This document shows, piece by piece, positions 1 through 28,060 of a DNA stretch of 29,396 nt; the first letter of the stretch is position 1; each line of letters opens with the position of its first letter. This DNA comes from a virus (Duplodnaviria; Caudoviricetes): positions 1-29,396 of the IMG/VR virus record IMGVR_UViG_3300020043_004884; one strand, given 5' to 3'. A program made the translations under genes and the position numbers. The notes beneath the pieces are model-generated. The model saw nothing but the letters and a program-made list of their open reading frames with translations, was not told where the DNA came from and searched no databases.

Positions 1-333
1 GAGTGTGAGGTTTCCGCGAGGATCTGCCAGCCCTTGCCGCAGTCCTGCGACTGAGAAGGCTTGGCAGGGTGTTCCGCCGACGATGAGGTTAGGTCGAAGA
101 GTGTCTGGCCAGTCATTGTGTTTTGTCATGTCGCCCAGGTTGGGGGTTTCCGGCCAGTGATGGGCAAGCACGGCGGAAGGGAACTTCTCGATTTCAGCGA
201 AGGCACAGGCTTTCCATCCGAGCGGTTCCCACGCCACAGACGCGGCCTCAATGCCGCTGCACACAGAAAGAAAAGAAAATGAACAAGGCATCGCATCCGA
301 CGCCGAGGAAGTTGGTTGTTGAATCGGAGTCAT
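1..333 (-). CDS. DNA (cytosine-5) methyltransferase, N-terminal part, runs off the left edge (not in the ORF track)
   Basis: Manual translation from ATG 333: MTPIQQPTSSASDAMPCSFSFLSVCSGIEAASVAWEPLGWKACAFAEIE...NLGDM...IVGGTPCQAFSVAGLRQGLADPRGNLTL. Motif I (SVCSGIEA) and catalytic motif IV (GGTPCQ) are present. The start overlaps the upstream stop as ATGA. Confidence 0.93.
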   Translation of the reverse strand, partial: MTPIQQPTSSASDAMPCSFSFLSVCSGIEAASVAWEPLGWKACAFAEIEKFPSAVLAHHWPETPNLGDMTKHNDWPDTLRPNLIVGGTPCQAFSVAGLRQGLADPRGNLTL

Positions 334-363
334 GCGCGGCGCGGATGGATTTGATCGTTCAAC
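278..363 (+). mobile_element. attC-like recombination site A
   Basis: AATGAAC-AAGGC-ATC[G]CATCCG[A]CGCCG ... CGGCGCGGATGGAT-TTGATC-GTTCAAC. It has an inverse core, a 5/6-nt spacer pair, paired arms with two extrahelical bases, and a GTT core. Confidence 0.85.
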
Positions 364-545
364 TTAACCTCAATCCATTGCGATCTGTTCATCTTCCCGC
401 GCTCCCGATCGATCTTAGCCCATAGGCCAATAGGTAGGGATACGCTGCGGCTGATGCGGTTTCGCTTTCCGCCTAGGCCTGGTTTCCGGCCTGCGCCTTT
501 CCGTGCGCCTCCGTGCTTTTTTATGATGTGGATGGGGTTGGTCAT
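330..545 (-). CDS. Small DNA-binding protein (AT-hook-like GGARKGAGRKP followed by a ribbon-helix-helix-like segment)
   Basis: HGGARKGAGRKP then SVSLPIGLWAKID...NRSQWIE, an RHH-like pattern. Confidence 0.65.
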   Translation of the reverse strand: MTNPIHIIKKHGGARKGAGRKPGLGGKRNRISRSVSLPIGLWAKIDRERGKMNRSQWIEVKLNDQIHPRRA

Positions 546-3934: not shown

Positions 3935-4551
3935 TGCGGCTTGCGATACGAATCCCAGTTAAATTCCACGGTTACGCCGTTGCCCCGTATGCGGTCGATT
4001 ACGGACGTATTGAGCGATGCGGCTAGTTGATGCTTGCTTAGGTTGGCAATTAGGATCGTCGGCTTACCCTCGGCGTATCGTGCATCAATCAGGTGAGTTA
4101 GCAGGCGGTTTTCCCAGTCGCTTTCGGATCGCTCTTGCATCTCGTCAATCACAAGCAAATCCGTTTTGGCAAGGTCGTCAATTATGTCCATTTCGGAAAC
4201 GTCCCGATTTGAGAACGTGGCGCGGATTTCGAGAAAGAATCGCATTGCTGTGCGGTAGCGGGATGATCCGTTGCGGATGGCAAACTCTGCGGCGAGCCTG
4301 GTCTTGCCGTTTCCGCGCTGTCCGCAAAGGAGAATGATCCCGCCCGTGTTGACCTTATCTTGTGCTTTGCGGGCCGCTGATAGCCATTCCTCGCCCGTTG
4401 GTGGGGCGGATAGGACTCGATCCACCCAAGCGGAAGGCCATCCGGTTTTTACGCCTAGTGCGTTGGCAATGAGGGTTTCGTTTTTGCGCTCGTAATCCGG
4501 CTCCGTGGCTTCGTATAGGTGCGGGTGCGTGTATTTGGTTTCTTGGCTCAT
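3931..4551 (-). CDS. DnaC/IstB-like AAA+ helicase loader
   Basis: Walker A GQRGNGKT, Walker B LLVIDE, IDARY...PTILIAN, DRIR, FNWDSYR. It lies between the initiator and dnaB. Confidence 0.88.
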   Translation of the reverse strand: MSQETKYTHPHLYEATEPDYERKNETLIANALGVKTGWPSAWVDRVLSAPPTGEEWLSAARKAQDKVNTGGIILLCGQRGNGKTRLAAEFAIRNGSSRYRTAMRFFLEIRATFSNRDVSEMDIIDDLAKTDLLVIDEMQERSESDWENRLLTHLIDARYAEGKPTILIANLSKHQLAASLNTSVIDRIRGNGVTVEFNWDSYRKPQ

Positions 4552-5264
4552 GGCATTGTGTCGATTAGGTGTTGGCGTTCGTTAAATGGGTCGCGGTGGA
4601 TGGCTAGCTGTTTTTGGGCGGGTTGGGTGGATTGAGGTGGTGGGAAAAAAGATTGCCAGTTTTTTTCGATAGCATACTCAATCCATTCGATGGCTGTATT
4701 TTCTCCAAGCGATTTAAGCTTCTTGAGTTGCATCTTGATGGATTGATCCGTGAGGGGCTTCTTGAGTTGTTTTCGATGTAATTCCCAGTCAGTCCAGCTT
4801 TCCTTGAATTTATCTGAATCAAACGGCAAATCTATCCTTATTGGGAGAACCTTAATGGGAGTATCCTTAATGGGAGAACCTTTGTGTTCCACTTTCGGCA
4901 CGGGTGGTGTGCCACTTGTGGAACGGGTGGTGTTCCGTTTTCGGCACGGGTGGTGTTCCGTTTTCGGGTCAGGTTGTGAATTAGCCTGTTCCACTTTCGG
5001 CACGGGTAGGTGTGCCACTTGTGGAACGGGTGAGGTAATATAAACACTCGTTTGGCCTTGCCGCGAAACCTTGGAAATCATCCCTTTTTCCTGTAATGAT
5101 GCGAGGGATTTAAACATTCGTTTCCTGTCCATCTTGCAGATTTTCGCCGCTTCCTTGGCCGATCCGTAAAGCTCTCCCCTGCGGTAAATATGGCACATCA
5201 CCCGAAAGGCATAGGGGTCAAGTTCTGCATCGTCTAGCCATGCGGGGATGAATGCGGTTTTCAT
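4548..5264 (-). CDS. Phage replication initiator (replisome organiser)
   Basis: N-terminal winged-HTH-like region, a central repeat linker, and a C-terminal W..W..HRKQLKKPLT...AIEKNWQS domain. It sits upstream of the loader and helicase. Confidence 0.8.
   Translation of the reverse strand: MKTAFIPAWLDDAELDPYAFRVMCHIYRRGELYGSAKEAAKICKMDRKRMFKSLASLQEKGMISKVSRQGQTSVYITSPVPQVAHLPVPKVEQANSQPDPKTEHHPCRKRNTTRSTSGTPPVPKVEHKGSPIKDTPIKVLPIRIDLPFDSDKFKESWTDWELHRKQLKKPLTDQSIKMQLKKLKSLGENTAIEWIEYAIEKNWQSFFPPPQSTQPAQKQLAIHRDPFNERQHLIDTMP
4836..5031. repeat. Iteron-like repeats (probable replication origin) inside the initiator gene
   Basis: Six ~22-bp copies of GTGTKCCRYTTKYGGMACGGGT starting at 4884, 4907, 4930, 4953, 4986 and 5010, plus three 15-bp-period CCTTAWTGGGAG units at 4836-4880. 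Confidence 0.8.
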
Positions 5265-5271
5265 AGGGTTA

Positions 5272-5395
5272 ACAAAAAGCCCCCATACCTGCCCACCTGT
5301 GCAACCCCGGAATGAAAAACGGGCAGGTGAGCGGATATGGAGGCTGTTTGGTTTGGTTTCATTCTATTCGATCCGGTTGCAGCGGAGTCTTGCGA
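5272..5395 (-). ncRNA. C4/CI-like antisense-attenuator leader RNA upstream of the initiator gene
   Basis: A long stem (5278-5345) followed by a U tract. Its loop UUUUUCAUUC and bulge GUUGCA are complementary to the upstream leader segments GAAUGAAA (5357-5364) and UGCAACC (5375-5381). Confidence 0.6.
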
Positions 5396-5403
5396 CAGGG
5401 GTT

Positions 5404-5431
5404 TTATTACATCTCGGCGTTACAAAGTCAA
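5404..5431 (-). promoter_or_regulatory. Putative sigma70-type promoter for the replication operon
   Basis: TTGACT-N16-TAATAA immediately before the structured leader. Confidence 0.55.
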
Positions 5432-5682
5432 CCCAACTTATTCGATGTTTCGCGCAAGGGGTTATCTGATTCAATTCTAAAAAACCGATTCCAGTATTCA
5501 ACCCGCTCATCATGATTCATTGCTTCCACTTCGGCGGTTATTTCTGATAGCCGATTCATCAGCGTTTGACGGTATGACAAAAGAACGGATTTGGATGTCC
5601 CCAATCCCTTTTGAAGTCCGGTGCGATAGCCTTTGCTGTATCCCGTGGCATGTCCTTGTTGGTATTCTTGCGTATGTTTCAT
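5428..5682 (-). CDS. Hypothetical protein (GxxxG repeat at N-terminus)
   Basis: ATGA-coupled ORF containing YQQGHATGYSKGYRTG. Confidence 0.55.
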   Translation of the reverse strand: MKHTQEYQQGHATGYSKGYRTGLQKGLGTSKSVLLSYRQTLMNRLSEITAEVEAMNHDERVEYWNRFFRIESDNPLRETSNKLG

Positions 5683-8658: not shown

Positions 8659-8730
8659 GGTTGGTTAGTTCTGGTTGCCCCTCCCCTCCCCTGCCAAACT
8701 GACAGGAAAAGCGCGGGGAGGTTTGGGAGA

Positions 8731-8904
8731 TTACACGAGGCAAAGCGGGCTAACGAGTCCATTCGATGTCATCGGCCACCAGCTGCGCTTGATGACTCCT
8801 GAGAATCCGGCTTTGTGCTGCTTGCCCTTCATCGCCATCCATGCGGAGTAAGTGGATTCCGAGATTGCGATGCCGTGTTTTTTGCCTGCGGTTACTTTTT
8901 TCAT
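8731..8904 (-). CDS. Hypothetical basic protein
   Basis: First ORF after promoter P2. Confidence 0.45.
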   Translation of the reverse strand: MKKVTAGKKHGIAISESTYSAWMAMKGKQHKAGFSGVIKRSWWPMTSNGLVSPLCLV

Positions 8905-8957
8905 TTTGTTTGTCAGTTTGATGTTGGTTGTGTCGGCGTGTCTCGCTGACAAGAAAA

Positions 8958-9036
8958 GGAATACCCGATTACTTGATTCCGCGCAATAACTTTTTTCATC
9001 TTTCCTGCATTTTGTCAGAATCCCCTTGCGGCGTAT
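8958..9036 (-). promoter_or_regulatory. Putative promoter P2 with upstream box
   Basis: ATACGCCGCAAGGGGATT-N32-TTGCGC-N17-TATTCC, with an A tract before the -35. Confidence 0.55.
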
Positions 9037-9063
9037 GGGTTTGCGGGCGCGTGCGGTGATCGT

Positions 9064-9405
9064 CTAATCTTGGCACGGTTCGACTAACAACTTGTTCTGC
9101 TTGCGAAGTGGGCACACGCGGCAGTATTCGCCGCCCGTGTATTTGATTTGGTTGCACGCCATGCCTTTCCAAGATTTCTGGACGCACTTCCTTTCCATCT
9201 CTTTCCGATTCGCATCTTGCCGCCGCTTCACATCTTCGATCCGGCATTGTTGCTCGAATGTCAGCGGCACATCTTCGGGGATCGGGTCATACTTTCCGCA
9301 GTCGCACCGTTCCTCCTCGCTCTCACAGAAGAAGCAGAACAAGGCCGCCGCATGCAACGCCGGTGGCGCTGCATCTTCAATTCGGTCTATAGGGGCGGCG
9401 TGCAT
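9064..9405 (-). CDS. Cys-rich hypothetical protein (cassette 1 gene)
   Basis: CxxC...CxC and C...CxxC clusters. It starts inside attC B and reads through the attI-like site. Confidence 0.55.
   Translation of the reverse strand: MHAAPIDRIEDAAPPALHAAALFCFFCESEEERCDCGKYDPIPEDVPLTFEQQCRIEDVKRRQDANRKEMERKCVQKSWKGMACNQIKYTGGEYCRVCPLRKQNKLLVEPCQD
9082..9100 (+). mobile_element. attI-like simple site heading the cassette array
   Basis: GACTAAC-AACTT-GTTCTGC. GTTCTGCTT is the exact reverse complement of AAGCAGAAC at attC B. Confidence 0.6.
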
Positions 9406-9422
9406 GGGCTCAATCGTTAGCG
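9334..9422 (+). mobile_element. attC-like site B
   Basis: GCAGAAC-AAGGCC-GCC[G]CATGCA[A]CGCCG ... CGGCGTGCATGGGC-TCAATC-GTTAGCG. Confidence 0.85.
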
Positions 9423-9652
9423 GTAAGAATGATACTGAGAACCGCCCGCACGGTTCGCATCTCTTGCGAGGATATCTCCCCGCAGCGGAGCCGCATTTCT
9501 TGGGCGGGCATATCCCGCCAGAACTCCAGATCAGTTCGGAGCTTGTAGCCCGCGATGGCCTGTTTTTTATACTCGTCTCGCTGTTTCGTAAGGTCAGCGA
9601 CTTTCATTTCGCAGGGCTTGGTTGTGCCGTCATCCATTAAATACATGCTCAT
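9410..9652 (-). CDS. Hypothetical protein (cassette 2 gene; probable start ATG 9652)
   Basis: MSMYLMDD...QEMRLRCGEISSQEMRTVRAVL...AND. The stop lies inside attC B. Confidence 0.6.
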   Translation of the reverse strand: MSMYLMDDGTTKPCEMKVADLTKQRDEYKKQAIAGYKLRTDLEFWRDMPAQEMRLRCGEISSQEMRTVRAVLSIILTAND

Positions 9653-9685
9653 ATTGATTCGGAGTTGGTTGGTATTTCGGAAGAG

Positions 9686-9777
9686 CCACAACAAGGTCGC
9701 AGATGGCGACGCCGTTGGGCGCGTGTGATCATTTTGGACGCGCAGATCGGCGTCGCGCCATTGCATCGGCGTTAGCC
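9686..9777 (+). mobile_element. attC-like site C
   Basis: CCACAAC-AAGGTC-GCA[G]ATGGCG[A]CG ... CGCGCCATTGC-ATCGGC-GTTAGCC. Confidence 0.85.
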
Positions 9778-10709
9778 AATGAATCAATATGAGTGAAACT
9801 TCCGCTGGCATTTTCCACTTCCTTGAGAACCTCGTCACAAAGTTCACATGGCGGCGACTGCTCTTCGTTCTTTGTGTGTTGTTCTTGATCGCCTCTGGTG
9901 TGATTCTCTACGAGGCTTACACGGGACATTTCCGACTGGATAGGATGGCTCGTTCCGCAGAGCTTCTTGAGCAACTTCAAAAGCAACAGGATAGCCTTGT
10001 TACACACCCTAATCCCACGCTCTCCAAGATTCACGAAGGCATTGCCGATGAGTTGCAGAGCTACGTAGGCGGAGATCGGTTGCCCTTTCACATGCCCGTT
10101 TGGTTCTTGAAGGCACTGGCATCTATAGTTCCTTGGGTATTCGCCGCCTTCATTTTGATTCTCACCAACGATAGCGGGATCAAGAATATGCTCGGGGGCG
10201 TTTTGATTATCGCTACGCCACTTGTTTTCATTGGGGCTGTCCTCCCATGCTTCCGACACAGTTGGATCAACTACTTCGGTTACCCGATTGGAAGCTGTCT
10301 TCTTATTATGATCATTTTTTGGCGGATCGGAACGCGCAAACCAAAGAAGGCTAACAAGGCGGAGATGGACGACGCCGAGGAAGCCGTCTGATCTTTTTTG
10401 GCGTCGTTCGCGGCGCGCCATTCCTATATCGTTCGTCTCACCATAAAGATCCATGTCGAGAGCGCCTAGCATGATGCATCGTTTGTCCTCAACCGCGGAG
10501 TCCAGTTCCCGCGTTGTCCATATCAGCTTGCCATCGTTCCGGCGCGCCATGATTTTCAGCACGGTTTCCAGTTGGGCATTGCGGAACTTTTGGGCAGCGA
10601 GTTCGTGCTCAGTGTTTTCGGCGTGAGCAATCGCGGCCTTGACCTGCCCAAAGAAAGACGAATAAGGCGTCTCTGATAACGGGGACTCGCCCCGAGTTAA
10701 ATTTTTCAT
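9729..10709 (-). CDS. Cassette 4 gene. The probable coding core is 10709 to ~10432; the frame stays open across cassette 3 to a stop in attC C
   Basis: The N-terminal ~93 aa look like a helical phage protein. The remainder is the antisense of the plus-strand membrane gene. Confidence 0.5.
   Translation of the reverse strand: MKNLTRGESPLSETPYSSFFGQVKAAIAHAENTEHELAAQKFRNAQLETVLKIMARRNDGKLIWTTRELDSAVEDKRCIMLGALDMDLYGETNDIGMARRERRQKRSDGFLGVVHLRLVSLLWFARSDPPKNDHNKKTASNRVTEVVDPTVSEAWEDSPNENKWRSDNQNAPEHILDPAIVGENQNEGGEYPRNYRCQCLQEPNGHVKGQPISAYVALQLIGNAFVNLGERGIRVCNKAILLLLKLLKKLCGTSHPIQSEMSRVSLVENHTRGDQEQHTKNEEQSPPCELCDEVLKEVENASGSFTHIDSLANADAMARRRSARPK
9789..10391 (+). CDS. Multi-pass membrane protein (cassette 3 gene, canonical integron orientation)
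   Basis: About four hydrophobic segments. It is the only convincing plus-strand gene, starts 18 nt after GTTAGCC, and stops inside attC D. Confidence 0.8.
   Translation: MSETSAGIFHFLENLVTKFTWRRLLFVLCVLFLIASGVILYEAYTGHFRLDRMARSAELLEQLQKQQDSLVTHPNPTLSKIHEGIADELQSYVGGDRLPFHMPVWFLKALASIVPWVFAAFILILTNDSGIKNMLGGVLIIATPLVFIGAVLPCFRHSWINYFGYPIGSCLLIMIIFWRIGTRKPKKANKAEMDDAEEAV
10349..10437 (+). mobile_element. attC-like site D
   Basis: GGCTAAC-AAGGC-GGA[G]ATGG[A]CG[A]CGCCG ... CGGCGCGCCATTCC-TATATC-GTTCGTC. GGCTAAC complements GTTAGCC at 9771. Confidence 0.88.
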
Positions 10710-10777
10710 TTTGGCTTGGTAGTTGTGGGAGTAGTCGGCGGGCGCTCCCGTCCCCGTATCAGGACTCGACGTTCAGG
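10657..10777 (+). mobile_element. attC-like site E
   Basis: GACGAAT-AAGGC-GTC[T]CTGATA[A]CGGGGAC ... GTCCCCGTATCAGGAC-TCGAC-GTTCAGG. AGACGAAT matches GTTCGTCT at 10431 at 7 of 8 positions. Confidence 0.82.
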
Positions 10778-11121
10778 AATTTCGCCGCTTGCCGCTTGGC
10801 TTGCTCCAGTTCACCCTGGGTGATCCGTGTTGATGCTTGTGGCTTGATGCGGTGACTCGCCGGTATGTGGTTGTGGGCGCGTGGTTTCGGTTTCGGGATG
10901 TCTTTCATTTTCGGTTCTGGTTGCGTTCGGATCATGGTGATTTTTACATGCTGGGAAAGGTCATCACGGTAAGGGTCTTTGATTCCTGGAATGGCCGTGA
11001 ATGCGTCGGCAAGGTCGACGGCGGTTCGGGCTACCAGGATGAAGGAAAGATCACCCAGAACCACTTCCGTTGCGATCCCAGACTTGTAGGGGATGTGGCG
11101 CTTAGTCTTGCCCATCCGCAT
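10759..11121 (-). CDS. Hypothetical protein
   Basis: ORF in the operon; its stop lies inside attC E. Confidence 0.55.
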   Translation of the reverse strand: MRMGKTKRHIPYKSGIATEVVLGDLSFILVARTAVDLADAFTAIPGIKDPYRDDLSQHVKITMIRTQPEPKMKDIPKPKPRAHNHIPASHRIKPQASTRITQGELEQAKRQAAKFLNVES

Positions 11122-11299
11122 CCTCCGTTTCCATGCTCAGTCTCATTGCGAGATAGCGATCCCAATATTCCGAAAACGCTTCCTTGATCCGTTCGCGGTT
11201 GTCAGGGTCGGCGGCAACGTAGGTATCGGCCAGCCGTTTTATGAAATTCCCGCCGTAGGTCTGCATGGCGGCTATCACTCCGATTTCAATTGAGTTCAT
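11102..11299 (-). CDS. Conserved phage hypothetical protein
   Basis: M..YGGNF...LA.....ADPDN...I..AF..YW..Y family pattern. Confidence 0.7.
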   Translation of the reverse strand: MNSIEIGVIAAMQTYGGNFIKRLADTYVAADPDNRERIKEAFSEYWDRYLAMRLSMETEDADGQD

Positions 11300-11601
11300 T
11301 CCCCGCTCCTTTCCGCTAGGTTCTGGATCATGTCGTCATAATCAAACCCGATTTCATCGTCGGCACTTTCGATGGCCGCGATCTGCTTGCCGTGGGTAGT
11401 CATGCAGTCCGGGCAATACTTCCCGTCGTATCCCCACCCGTCCGCGTCGAGTTGGTCGGTGATCACGTCCTTGGCCTGATCCCCGAAGTCGTCCATATGT
11501 TCTTCCGTTGCGTCGATTTCGGATGGGCTGGCAACCATGTGTTTTTTCTCGCAGTATCCGCATTCAACCCACGCGCTGATTTTTCCGAAGTAGGCTGTCA
11601 T
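11296..11601 (-). CDS. Acidic Zn-finger-like hypothetical protein
   Basis: CGYC ... GW.....YCPDC; ATGA-coupled start at 11601. Confidence 0.6.
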   Translation of the reverse strand: MTAYFGKISAWVECGYCEKKHMVASPSEIDATEEHMDDFGDQAKDVITDQLDADGWGYDGKYCPDCMTTHGKQIAAIESADDEIGFDYDDMIQNLAERSGE

Positions 11602-11846
11602 AATTTCGGGGCGGTTAGGGTTAGGATAATCCGGCATTCCGTGAGTAGTTCCGGCGTAAGATCAATACAGGAATCCTGCGCGTCATAGAGCTTTTGAAAT
11701 CCCTTCCTGCACGCGGCTAGTCGGCGTTCTAGGCTTTCGGCTTTGCATTTCATTTCTGAGAACGCGCGTTCCGGGTGCATCGGCGGATAGCATCTCACTA
11801 GGGCTTCATCCGTCTCAGGGGTCGGGTATTGGCTAATTGGTTTCAT
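11598..11846 (-). CDS. Phage hypothetical protein (TPETD...LERR type)
   Basis: ATGA-coupled; shares a motif with 5679-5885. Confidence 0.6.
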   Translation of the reverse strand: MKPISQYPTPETDEALVRCYPPMHPERAFSEMKCKAESLERRLAACRKGFQKLYDAQDSCIDLTPELLTECRIILTLTAPKL

Positions 11847-12103
11847 AAAGTTGATTTCCATTTCCTTGCGGTTTTCACGGCATCGCGGATGGCGCATGAG
11901 AGGTTCCACGCGGCTTCGGCGCTGTCGGTGCTACCGTCCTGCCCGCCCACGATCCATCTCACTTCCGGGTCTTCCCACTGCTTGTCCAGATTTTTTCGCG
12001 TCGTAACCCAAACGCTGCTAATGGGCCAGAACCCATCAACCTTGTAAGACACTTCGCGGCGGAACTCGGTGGTTTCCTTTTTGCGGGTGAATGGTTGTTT
12101 CAT
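11843..12103 (-). CDS. Hypothetical protein
   Basis: ATGA-coupled on both sides. Confidence 0.6.
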   Translation of the reverse strand: MKQPFTRKKETTEFRREVSYKVDGFWPISSVWVTTRKNLDKQWEDPEVRWIVGGQDGSTDSAEAAWNLSCAIRDAVKTARKWKSTL

Positions 12104-12318
12104 ACTGGCGCGACTTGCAAGCGGTTGAATTTATCTGTGATGACGCGGATAGAATAAAGCTTGCCGTGTTCATGTTTGCTTACTCCAGCGCGACTCAAAA
12201 GCCCGTGTGTCCAGTCATTCGATTCAACGTGGCAGATTTCTCCTTGGCGCGTAAATCGAGCAAGCAAGGCCGCGTCTCCCGCGCCTCGGTATCCGTCGTG
12301 GATTGATGGGGTGTTCAT
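12100..12318 (-). CDS. Hypothetical protein, first gene after P3
   Basis: ATG 12318 lies just downstream of the promoter motif. Confidence 0.5.
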   Translation of the reverse strand: MNTPSIHDGYRGAGDAALLARFTRQGEICHVESNDWTHGLLSRAGVSKHEHGKLYSIRVITDKFNRLQVAPV

Positions 12319-12328
12319 GTCGGAAAGA

Positions 12329-12407
12329 CACCTACCCGATCCCATGAAACCGCGCAACACTTTTTTTCAAGCGGGATGAAAATTCCCAAAATCGCCTTGG
12401 GGCGTAT
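12329..12407 (-). promoter_or_regulatory. Putative promoter P3 with upstream box
   Basis: ATACGCCCCAAGGCGATT-N32-TTGCGC-N17-TAGGTG at the boundary between lysis and early genes. Confidence 0.6.
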
Positions 12408-12416
12408 AGGATGGAA

Positions 12417-12953
12417 TCAAGCGGGAATAAGCCTATCCTGCCTGAATCGAATCCGGCTGCGGATTTTGGAAATGTGCCGAGACTTGGCAAATACGCCCCC
12501 GCCCTCGCGGCTTCCGGCTGCGTCGGTGTTGCCTTCAATCGTGCGCACCATGCCGTTTTCATCCGGGGATGTGGCTGCAATGCCGATGTGCGAAAAGGTG
12601 AAAACCACGATGTCGCCGGGGAGAATGTCGCCGCGATGCGGTTTGCGAGTCCATGTCGTCAAATCCTGATCCATGCTCCAGTTCTCCATATCCCATGCTC
12701 CGGCTGTTTTAGGGAGTGTGAACGTGCCGGTATGGCCATCAGCTCCCGCTGCCTTGAATGCTTCGCGGATCACCCAGCACACAAAGGCAGCACACCAAGC
12801 GTATCCATCATCCCCTGGCTTTGATCCATTCGGGTCGTAGTTGTCAGCGAGGAAATACTTCTGGATTTCAGGCCCCCTATTGGTTCCGTCAACCTCCTCG
12901 TTTCCAACCTCGGCTTTTGCGATGCGGACGATCTCATGGGCTAGGTCTTTCAT
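12417..12953 (-). CDS. Endolysin, CHAP-domain amidase/peptidase
   Basis: AWCAAFV (catalytic Cys), PGDIVVF, SHIGI (His), TIEGNT. Confidence 0.9.
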   Translation of the reverse strand: MKDLAHEIVRIAKAEVGNEEVDGTNRGPEIQKYFLADNYDPNGSKPGDDGYAWCAAFVCWVIREAFKAAGADGHTGTFTLPKTAGAWDMENWSMDQDLTTWTRKPHRGDILPGDIVVFTFSHIGIAATSPDENGMVRTIEGNTDAAGSREGGGVFAKSRHISKIRSRIRFRQDRLIPA

Positions 12954-27559: not shown

Positions 27560-28060
27560 CTATGCGGGCTTTCTTACCCACCAAGACGGGTGTTTTCCGT
27601 CGTCAATTATGGACAATTCCAGCCCATGACGGACGCAAAAAGCGTCAACTGCGTCCACCGTCGGCTGGTATTCGGGGCAGTAATCATGCCCTGCGAAGAT
27701 TCCGCCAGGCTTTACGACGGGATACCAGTCCTCAAGCGTTTGCCCGCCTTCCTGCCCGGTGTGCGCGTAGCCGTCGCAATAAACCATGTCCGCGTATCCG
27801 TGCGGAAAGATCGGCAACGCCTCGGTAAAGGTCATGCGGTGAAATCCCACCCTGTCCCGCCATTGCCACAAGTCTGACATGGCAAGCTGCATTTCCGCTT
27901 CATCGTGGTGATCGCTCCACCTGTCGATCCCGATGTAATACATGGACGGGTTGGCGGCGAGCATCTCAGCGGCGAATTTCCCGGCAGCTACGCCAAGCTC
28001 GATGACGAGTCCGCCTGATGGGATGAGGGTTACTAGTTCTGCGCGGGTTGTTGGGGTCAT
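27560..28060 (-). CDS. Class I SAM-dependent methyltransferase (Methyltransf_24-like)
   Basis: IELGVAAG, GIDRW, DMVYCDGYAH, W...VKPGGIFAGHDY, V..AVD.F, SWW. Confidence 0.88.
   Translation of the reverse strand: MTPTTRAELVTLIPSGGLVIELGVAAGKFAAEMLAANPSMYYIGIDRWSDHHDEAEMQLAMSDLWQWRDRVGFHRMTFTEALPIFPHGYADMVYCDGYAHTGQEGGQTLEDWYPVVKPGGIFAGHDYCPEYQPTVDAVDAFCVRHGLELSIIDDGKHPSWWVRKPA

Follow-up and report, generated by a model that had tools for sequence, protein, structure and literature searches.

The strand selectivity of integrons is explained as aligning cassette genes with Pc, and how cassettes first form is an open question. The attC sites that bound cassettes follow a grammar of inverted R''/R' cores (AAC ... 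GTT) spaced by about 55–140 nt, L boxes and two extrahelical bases. Integrons in phages have already been published: in the excerpted text of Qi et al. 2023 (PMC9892861), phages carry attC clusters without an integrase and with methyltransferase cargo, the host IntI is able to use phage attCs, and the complete integrons are host or class 1 fragments. Excerpts of two further articles describe ORF-11 of attI1 and short attC ORFs as aids to translation on the top strand (the review PMC8876359), and inverted-integrase integrons, in which intI shares its strand with attC (PMC13323075).

The DNA analysed here (the window) is an entire viral record, linear, 29,396 nt long and 43% complete. It holds an attC array that has no integrase and whose cassettes are reversed and locked in one frame; we regard this as a real feature and as a case of a phage integron variant that is widespread.

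The attC array of the window phage

The genes for portal, capsid, prohead protease, terminase, DnaB and CHAP lysin all lie on the minus strand of the window. To judge by the family of the attC sites and by the related prophages of Luteolibacter and Haloferula, a member of the Verrucomicrobiota is the likely host. Five attC sites of 86–121 nt were found, every one with its top strand on the plus strand, the minus strand being at once the attC bottom strand and the phage coding strand.

278–363, plus strand: attC A; crossover G357/T358; score 14.5; minus-strand TGA 330–332 overlaps ATG 331–333 (ATGA)
9334–9422, plus strand: attC B; crossover G9416; score 14.5; minus-strand TGA 9410–9412 and ATG 9403–9405
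9686–9777, plus strand: attC C; crossover G9771; score 13.5; minus-strand TGA 9729–9731
10349–10437, plus strand: attC D; crossover G10431; score 13.5; one extra bulged base; AAC-frame stop absent
10657–10777, plus strand: attC E; crossover G10771; score 13.0; minus-strand TGA 10759–10761 and ATG 10707–10709

The sites were identified with a grammar detector that scores R cores, L boxes and the two bulges, the grammar having been checked on host arrays. It replaced a free-energy screen, which missed most sites, and an nhmmer profile, which missed long-loop sites such as E. Shuffled loci totalling 1.12 Mb gave three hits at a score of at least 12.5. All five sites retain intact L boxes, the L''/L' pairing and the two extrahelical bases that set the strand, and four of them have a normal core, the R'' of E reading AAT. 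Hairpin energies are modest: bottom-strand z-scores of the DNA folds range from -0.2 to -3.0, the top strand is about equally stable, and only the hairpin of C (-3.0) beats all shuffles. Because folding energy does not single out one strand, the bottom strand was assigned from the extrahelical-base pattern and core complementarity. Four sites cluster within 1.45 kb and a profile search of the record, 43% complete, found no PF00589 or tyrosine-recombinase match, which makes the array a CALIN; with no intI beside it, it is not a complete integron.

The genes and cassettes at these sites are as follows.

1..333, minus strand: DNA methyltransferase, truncated by the record end; PHROG 116/363, E 5e-29
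330..545, minus strand: 71-aa gene; passes the A crossover as Asn, stop 9 codons further
9064..9405, minus strand: 113-aa gene of cassette B (9095–9416); start in attC B, crosses 9094 as Asn, stop 10 codons on
9094..9100, plus strand: left end of the array; complementary at 7/7 positions to the R'' core of B, crossed as Asn
9410..9652, minus strand: 80-aa gene of cassette X (9417–9771); core match just 4/7
9649..9732, minus strand: 27-codon leader ORF, opened by ATG 9732 overlapping the stop in C (ATGA)
9729..10709, minus strand: gene Z of cassette 10432–10771; start in attC E, 326 aa to the stop in C
9772..10431, plus strand: cassette Y, 660 nt, forward, host-type; cores 7/7
9789–10391, plus strand: Y gene, 200 aa, with hydrophobic stretches; one homolog at 32%
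10759..11121, minus strand: 120-aa phage gene leading into the array; Asn at the E crossover, stop 4 codons later

At every site, neither of the other two minus-strand frames stays open as far upstream as the one in which the crossover reads AAC; this frame extends over 70, 163, 333, 113 and 121 codons at A, B, C, D and E, respectively. A sequence-only reading of this locus had claimed that upstream genes cross as an in-frame Asn codon (AAC) and stop inside the attC, and that downstream genes start there. Its coordinates were all reproduced on recomputation, and the Asn crossing was found at five of five sites. The AAC-frame TGA lies within A (330), B (9410), C (9729) and E (10759), and this part of the claim fails at D. 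The downstream start was recovered in A (333, in the ATGA overlap), B (9405, 4 nt past the stop) and E (10709, 49 nt past the stop), but at C the overlapping ATG (9732) opens only the leader.

The stop of this leader overlaps the ATG of gene X (9652), giving a relay of two ATGA overlaps; an alternative in-frame ATG of gene X (9766) lies within C. Gene Z has 93 codons of its own and then continues through D and antisense to Y. Beyond D, the AAC-frame ORF continues for 234 codons, passing antisense through the plus-strand gene 9789–10391, before it reaches the TGA in C. Both candidate ATGs of the truncated methyltransferase (333 and 291), which by its motif we take to be of the cytosine-C5 type, lie within A and none outside it; three of four homologs with no detected upstream attC have an ATG of their own just ahead of the motif. 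The gene at 330–545 has a homolog in phage L175 (53% identity, pairwise E 3e-19) that runs in frame into a different attC, ahead of a different gene.

Only Y has the gene orientation of a canonical cassette, and A, B, X and Z are reversed. Complementarity between the start of a cassette and its own R'' is 7/7 in B and Y, 6/7 in Z and 4/7 in X. Genes X and Z had no relative among the viral contigs searched, and public sequencing runs gave one 36-nt hint of cassette X at another array position. The left boundary at 9094 may be an attI in degenerate form or else a secondary site of an attG-like kind; it was not accepted as attI, since the attI weight matrix ranks it 87/660. In run X5, a record of depth 2 joins 9034 to 9404 and removes most of cassette B (9035–9403); this joint, with 5 nt of microhomology, was rejected as a product of IntI. 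No joint at a crossover was seen in any of the 8 runs, out of 12, that were compared with the window; cover of the phage itself in them is thin.

Of 31 window genes, just 2 have an SD-like 4-mer ahead of them. A scan of both strands from 8700 to 12450 found no sigma-70 consensus, a consensus that may not suit the host. An intergenic motif occurs three times (864–891, 8973–9000 and 12344–12371), each upstream of a minus-strand gene block, and is possibly a promoter of the window phage. Elsewhere, sequence copies spaced by 23 nt (4884–5032) within a gene resembling HTH replication initiators (4548–5264) suggest an iteron-like origin. A QueC-family gene with two unknown neighbours (1068–2508) and a separate methyltransferase (27560–28060) suggest DNA modification in this phage.

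The crossing frame in phage and host integrons

The frame was surveyed at 195 attC sites from 45 viral contigs and at 165 host chromosomal-integron sites (32 of 46 host stretches), using one detector for both sets after removal of 16 duplicate loci and of identical sites. Cassettes were defined by two detected bounding sites, with a maximum of 1.2 kb for phage and 1.5 kb for host, and the ORF was the longest ATG frame, taken without a gene caller. The sites share phylogeny and are non-independent.

The main ORF lies on the bottom strand in 126 of 138 phage cassettes versus 14 of 128 host cassettes; a top-strand gene is present in 114 of the 128, the detector giving the canonical sense. Seventy-one of the 126 bottom-strand phage genes cross in frame 0, the AAC frame, none in frame 1 and one in frame 2. 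The remaining 54 do not cross: 20 end on the crossover TAA and 34 inside their own cassette, a class inflated by undetected sites. The longest open bottom-strand frame was 0, 1 or 2 at 121, 55 and 19 phage sites versus 52, 61 and 52 of the 165 host sites, where no frame is preferred. Conservation of the AAC frame over homologous sites, proposed earlier as the check, was thus upheld, with 71 of 72 crossing phage genes in agreement.

The same preference is seen where R' is not GTTA (88/17/8 for frames 0/1/2 in phages, 41/50/38 in hosts). Phage sites with a GTTA R' lose the frame-0 excess (33/38/11) because many genes there end on the crossover TAA. Genes at TAAC-type sites (L005, L010, L013 and L016) are likewise on the bottom strand and end at or before the crossover. 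Counted by contig, the modal frame is 0 in 29 phage contigs, 1 in 14 and 2 in two; within the group with distant IntIs, the longest-open-frame test alone is non-significant (14/18/6 of 38). Extra attC sites or second arrays, with their AAC frame open, lie apart from intI in L031, L033, L064 and L071, and some of them are on the opposite strand. In L031, L064 and L071, second arrays of that opposite orientation obey the frame rule.

An AAC-frame stop lies within the attC at 188 of 195 phage sites versus 124 of 165 host sites (Fisher 2e-9), and a start opening at least 40 codons at 119 of 195 versus 19 of 165 (Fisher 2e-23). The ATG falls in the variable loop at 84 of these 119 sites, and the stop at 77. 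Exact ATGA overlaps occur at 49 phage attC sites, and a usable start is absent from 76 of the 195. At the in-attC starts, the mean unpaired value of the RNA is 0.46; coming from a set without controls, it is given no weight here. The stop position that had been proposed therefore generalises, also to attI (28/28), but the start position holds at just the 119 sites. The earlier wording that each attC supplies a stop and a start was too universal: a start is present in only about 60% of the sites, the crossover TAA terminates 20 of the 126 genes, another 34 stop within their own cassette, D has no stop, and a relative of the window phage (L176) reads through in frame 1.

Integrases, attI sites and cargo in related phages

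A pattern scan gave 19 loci, its first version including one non-attC hit. Locus L018 carries an integron integrase ahead of an array in which every gene is on the bottom strand; the integrase matches TIGR02249 with E 6e-70 and 236 bits, below the cut-off of 265. A search with an alignment based on L018 found IntI relatives in 53 viral contigs, three named genomes and nine metagenome loci, and also in 4 of 401 genomes from the host family. A quick tree was built from 77 IntIs, a sample seeded from L018; in it, 25 viral and four prophage or metagenome rows form one clade (SH-aLRT 99) that includes none of the 30 host rows; 18 further viral rows fall outside it. The patterns that we take to represent the catalytic motifs were all matched in 52 of the 77, the misses being nearly all in the lysine pattern, host rows included. 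The flanks of two IntI loci encode DnaB, initiator and resolvase families.

Arrays upstream of intI have their attC sites on the opposite strand to intI. In 28 loci intI is closely preceded by an attI, which in every one of them supplies an AAC-frame stop within 15 codons. The sequences of L046 and L048 lose their identity at the AAC of attI, with 7/30 matching on the cassette side and 28/30 on the intI side. At phage attI sites from L026 to L079, intI begins shortly past the attI stop on the same strand, and would thus be the last gene of the cassette transcript.

IntI was absent from all ten other attC-bearing viral records searched, three of them at least 90% complete. Among relatives of the window phage, L175 has three frame-0 sites, two with an ATGA overlap, L176 one site, with the frame-1 read-through, L179 one unclear site and L178 one likely false hit.

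Luteolibacter marinus and Haloferula luteola are cultured hosts that carry an IntI of this kind. In the former (L078, 2731–10975), a reversed integron whose cassettes include a methyltransferase and an HNH protein follows a large ORF and an ATPase-like ORF that resemble a Mu-type early region. The H. luteola prophage (L027/L080, 8300–10060) has a phage-clade IntI and attC-like sequences that were seen by eye and missed by the detector. In L029, the same attC sequence occurs in the array (7806) and about 4 kb past intI (15024), with a different right neighbour. Virus Rctr41k (L090, KX853513) has a gene annotated as xerD (4680–5678) that is 37% identical to a phage IntI, with one good attC detected downstream.

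Cassette proteins outside the window were compared with PHROGs (124 of 143 scanned), and 34 matched, among them 14 DNA methyltransferases, two Mom-like proteins, one Lar-like protein, one PAPS reductase and two HNH proteins. One methyltransferase family occupies differing array ranks in L023, L048 and L072. The cassette methyltransferase of L072 is 82% identical to a copy in L040; the L040 protein keeps its natural C-terminus, and the cassette form ends in Pro-Asn at the crossover. The L040 locus stops short of the upstream region, and the pair gives no direction of change. No near-identical inverted cassette was found whole at two array positions, the best pairs showing 67–82% DNA identity.

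Interpretation and relation to known integrons

The window array is, in our view, probably of a phage type in which genes lie on the attC bottom strand, cross into the next site in frame as Asn and take their stops, and often their starts, from attC; such an array likely keeps an early operon translated during shuffling. Ribosome reinitiation and the reshuffling of inverted cassettes are here inferred from sequence patterns. IntI would recombine the sites at G/TT, acting for this phage in trans, encoded either by the host or by the part of the genome that the record lacks. The circles that it moves would each carry a single gene whose start lies within the attC loop or shortly past it and which has no stop of its own. 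Any att site must then supply a stop in an agreed frame, and the shared frame could be a compatibility convention, because each cassette needs a stop at attI or at any attC. Phage promoters at the distal end of the array, rather than Pc, would drive transcription toward attI and intI. A ribosome terminating in the hairpin may open it and restart at the nearby ATG; the rarity of SD-like motifs (2/31) makes such coupling a plausible start route. The payoff would be a rapid turnover of accessory genes, with DNA methyltransferases prominent.

More tentatively, temperate phages may own a mirror-image integron, in which a dedicated clade of IntI reshuffles a pool of early genes, anti-restriction genes among them, that were cut from ordinary phage genes and had both ends replaced by attC under the Asn-frame rule. 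If so, phages would be an observable site of cassette creation and would exchange cassettes with host integrons in both directions; the L072/L040 methyltransferase pair makes this origin testable.

It is also conceivable, though we think it unlikely, that the layout is a by-product: attC DNA lands at GTT near the ends of phage genes, insertions that spare the operon survive, overlaps evolve later and no convention is selected. IntI does insert cassettes at many genomic GWT sites (excerpts of bioRxiv 10.1101/2022.09.11.507474), and isolated attCs such as A occur. ATGA overlaps are moreover a general style of the window phage (12 of 30 listed gene intervals, 6 of the 30 being long gaps), which favours this account and counts against our own. 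However, simple survival would not pick frame 0, since host-type attCs stop all frames about equally: at non-GTTA sites, stops in frames 0/1/2 number 95/92/82 of 129 in hosts and 110/64/57 of 113 in phages. Cores are 7/7 complementary in 108 of 138 phage cassettes, and arrays adjoin attI and a dedicated intI, which also counts against this account.

Quite improbable, too, is a fossil array, once modular, whose sites in the window are now domesticated junctions that no longer recombine. No integrase was found in the 43%-complete record or in the examined stretches of five relatives, of which L177 shows no attC; the core of X is 4/7, the R'' of E is mutated and attI is unrecognisable. Against this stand the L boxes, intact at all five sites, and cassette Y. 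Contigs in runs X1 and X2, from one study, match 9770–10435 with 3 differences in 666 nt (99.5% identity) and diverge from the window at both Y crossovers into other neighbours; in X2, another attC precedes Y and a forward ATG follows it. Cassette Y is thus mobile between contexts and ends at both crossovers, and its near-identical copies elsewhere indicate a host-type cassette that was recently inserted. Parts of Y also occur in runs X6 and X9, whereas a search of 401 genomes from the host order did not recover the Y protein. The antisense AAC frame of Y is open end to end, as in just 2 of 128 host cassettes, which lets gene Z read on to the stop in C. This fits a filter for unbroken translation, as a single post-hoc case.

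That the array is a captured piece of host integron with antisense shadows for genes, or a misassembled contig, is largely refuted and very hard to credit: Y and D are host-type and 220 codons of the 326-aa ORF are antisense, but the proteins encoded on the bottom strand, the methyltransferase at A among them, have matches in phage families, host cassettes are top-strand in 114 of 128, and records in runs X4 and X12 span the D junction with no differences, which shows that the assembly is sound.

The reading of a reversed, frame-locked phage array can be set beside the published systems. The phage arrays of Qi et al. 2023 share integrase-less attC clusters and methyltransferase cargo with the window; the excerpts of that article (PMC9892861) describe no bottom-strand genes, fixed frame, stops or starts in attC, or phage IntI clade. 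Its TJE1 array is forward at both detected sites, and reversal is not universal in phage arrays. Its ctTUS972 methyltransferase ends Pro-Asn-Val-stop at an apparent attC bottom strand, in an array with one weak detected site. In L170 (MW202573, 2794–3186), the methyltransferase of a published phage CALIN also ends Pro-Asn-Val-stop, like the reversed cassettes. The reversed frame-locked layout was not found in the literature searched, much of it in excerpt and with subscription journals outside its scope, in which Qi et al. 2023 was the only source on phage integrons; nor is it described in the portions consulted of PMC8618304, PMC13323075, PMC13366799, PMC8876359 and bioRxiv 10.1101/2022.09.11.507474.

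A canonical integron, represented by control chromosomal integrons from the Luteolibacter family, shares with the phage arrays the attC grammar and sequence family, the intI-attI-attC geometry and self-complementary cores. In contrast to it, the phage genes are reversed, co-directional with intI and often built from attC at both ends, and the median attC length is 94 nt in phages against 126 nt in host chromosomal integrons. The helper ORFs of attI1 and attC resemble the phage genes in crossing the recombination point, taking a stop from the recombination partner and, as proposed for the phage genes, working by termination and reinitiation (excerpts of PMC8876359); they are small and top-strand, whereas in the phage arrays it is the cargo genes, encoded by the bottom strand, that extend over the crossover, and they do so array-wide. 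Inverted-integrase integrons, as far as the excerpts of PMC13323075 describe them, likewise have intI and cassette genes co-directional, but in the phage arrays intI keeps the classical opposite strand and it is the genes that are flipped. The layout is common to dozens of phages and likely keeps shuffled genes translatable in any order. Phages would thereby gain a programmable accessory-gene shuffler rich in methyltransferases, a counterpart to host integrons as defence banks. A whole class of arrays with reversed genes, a fixed crossover frame and a phage-borne integrase would show the integron machinery coupled to another logic of expression.
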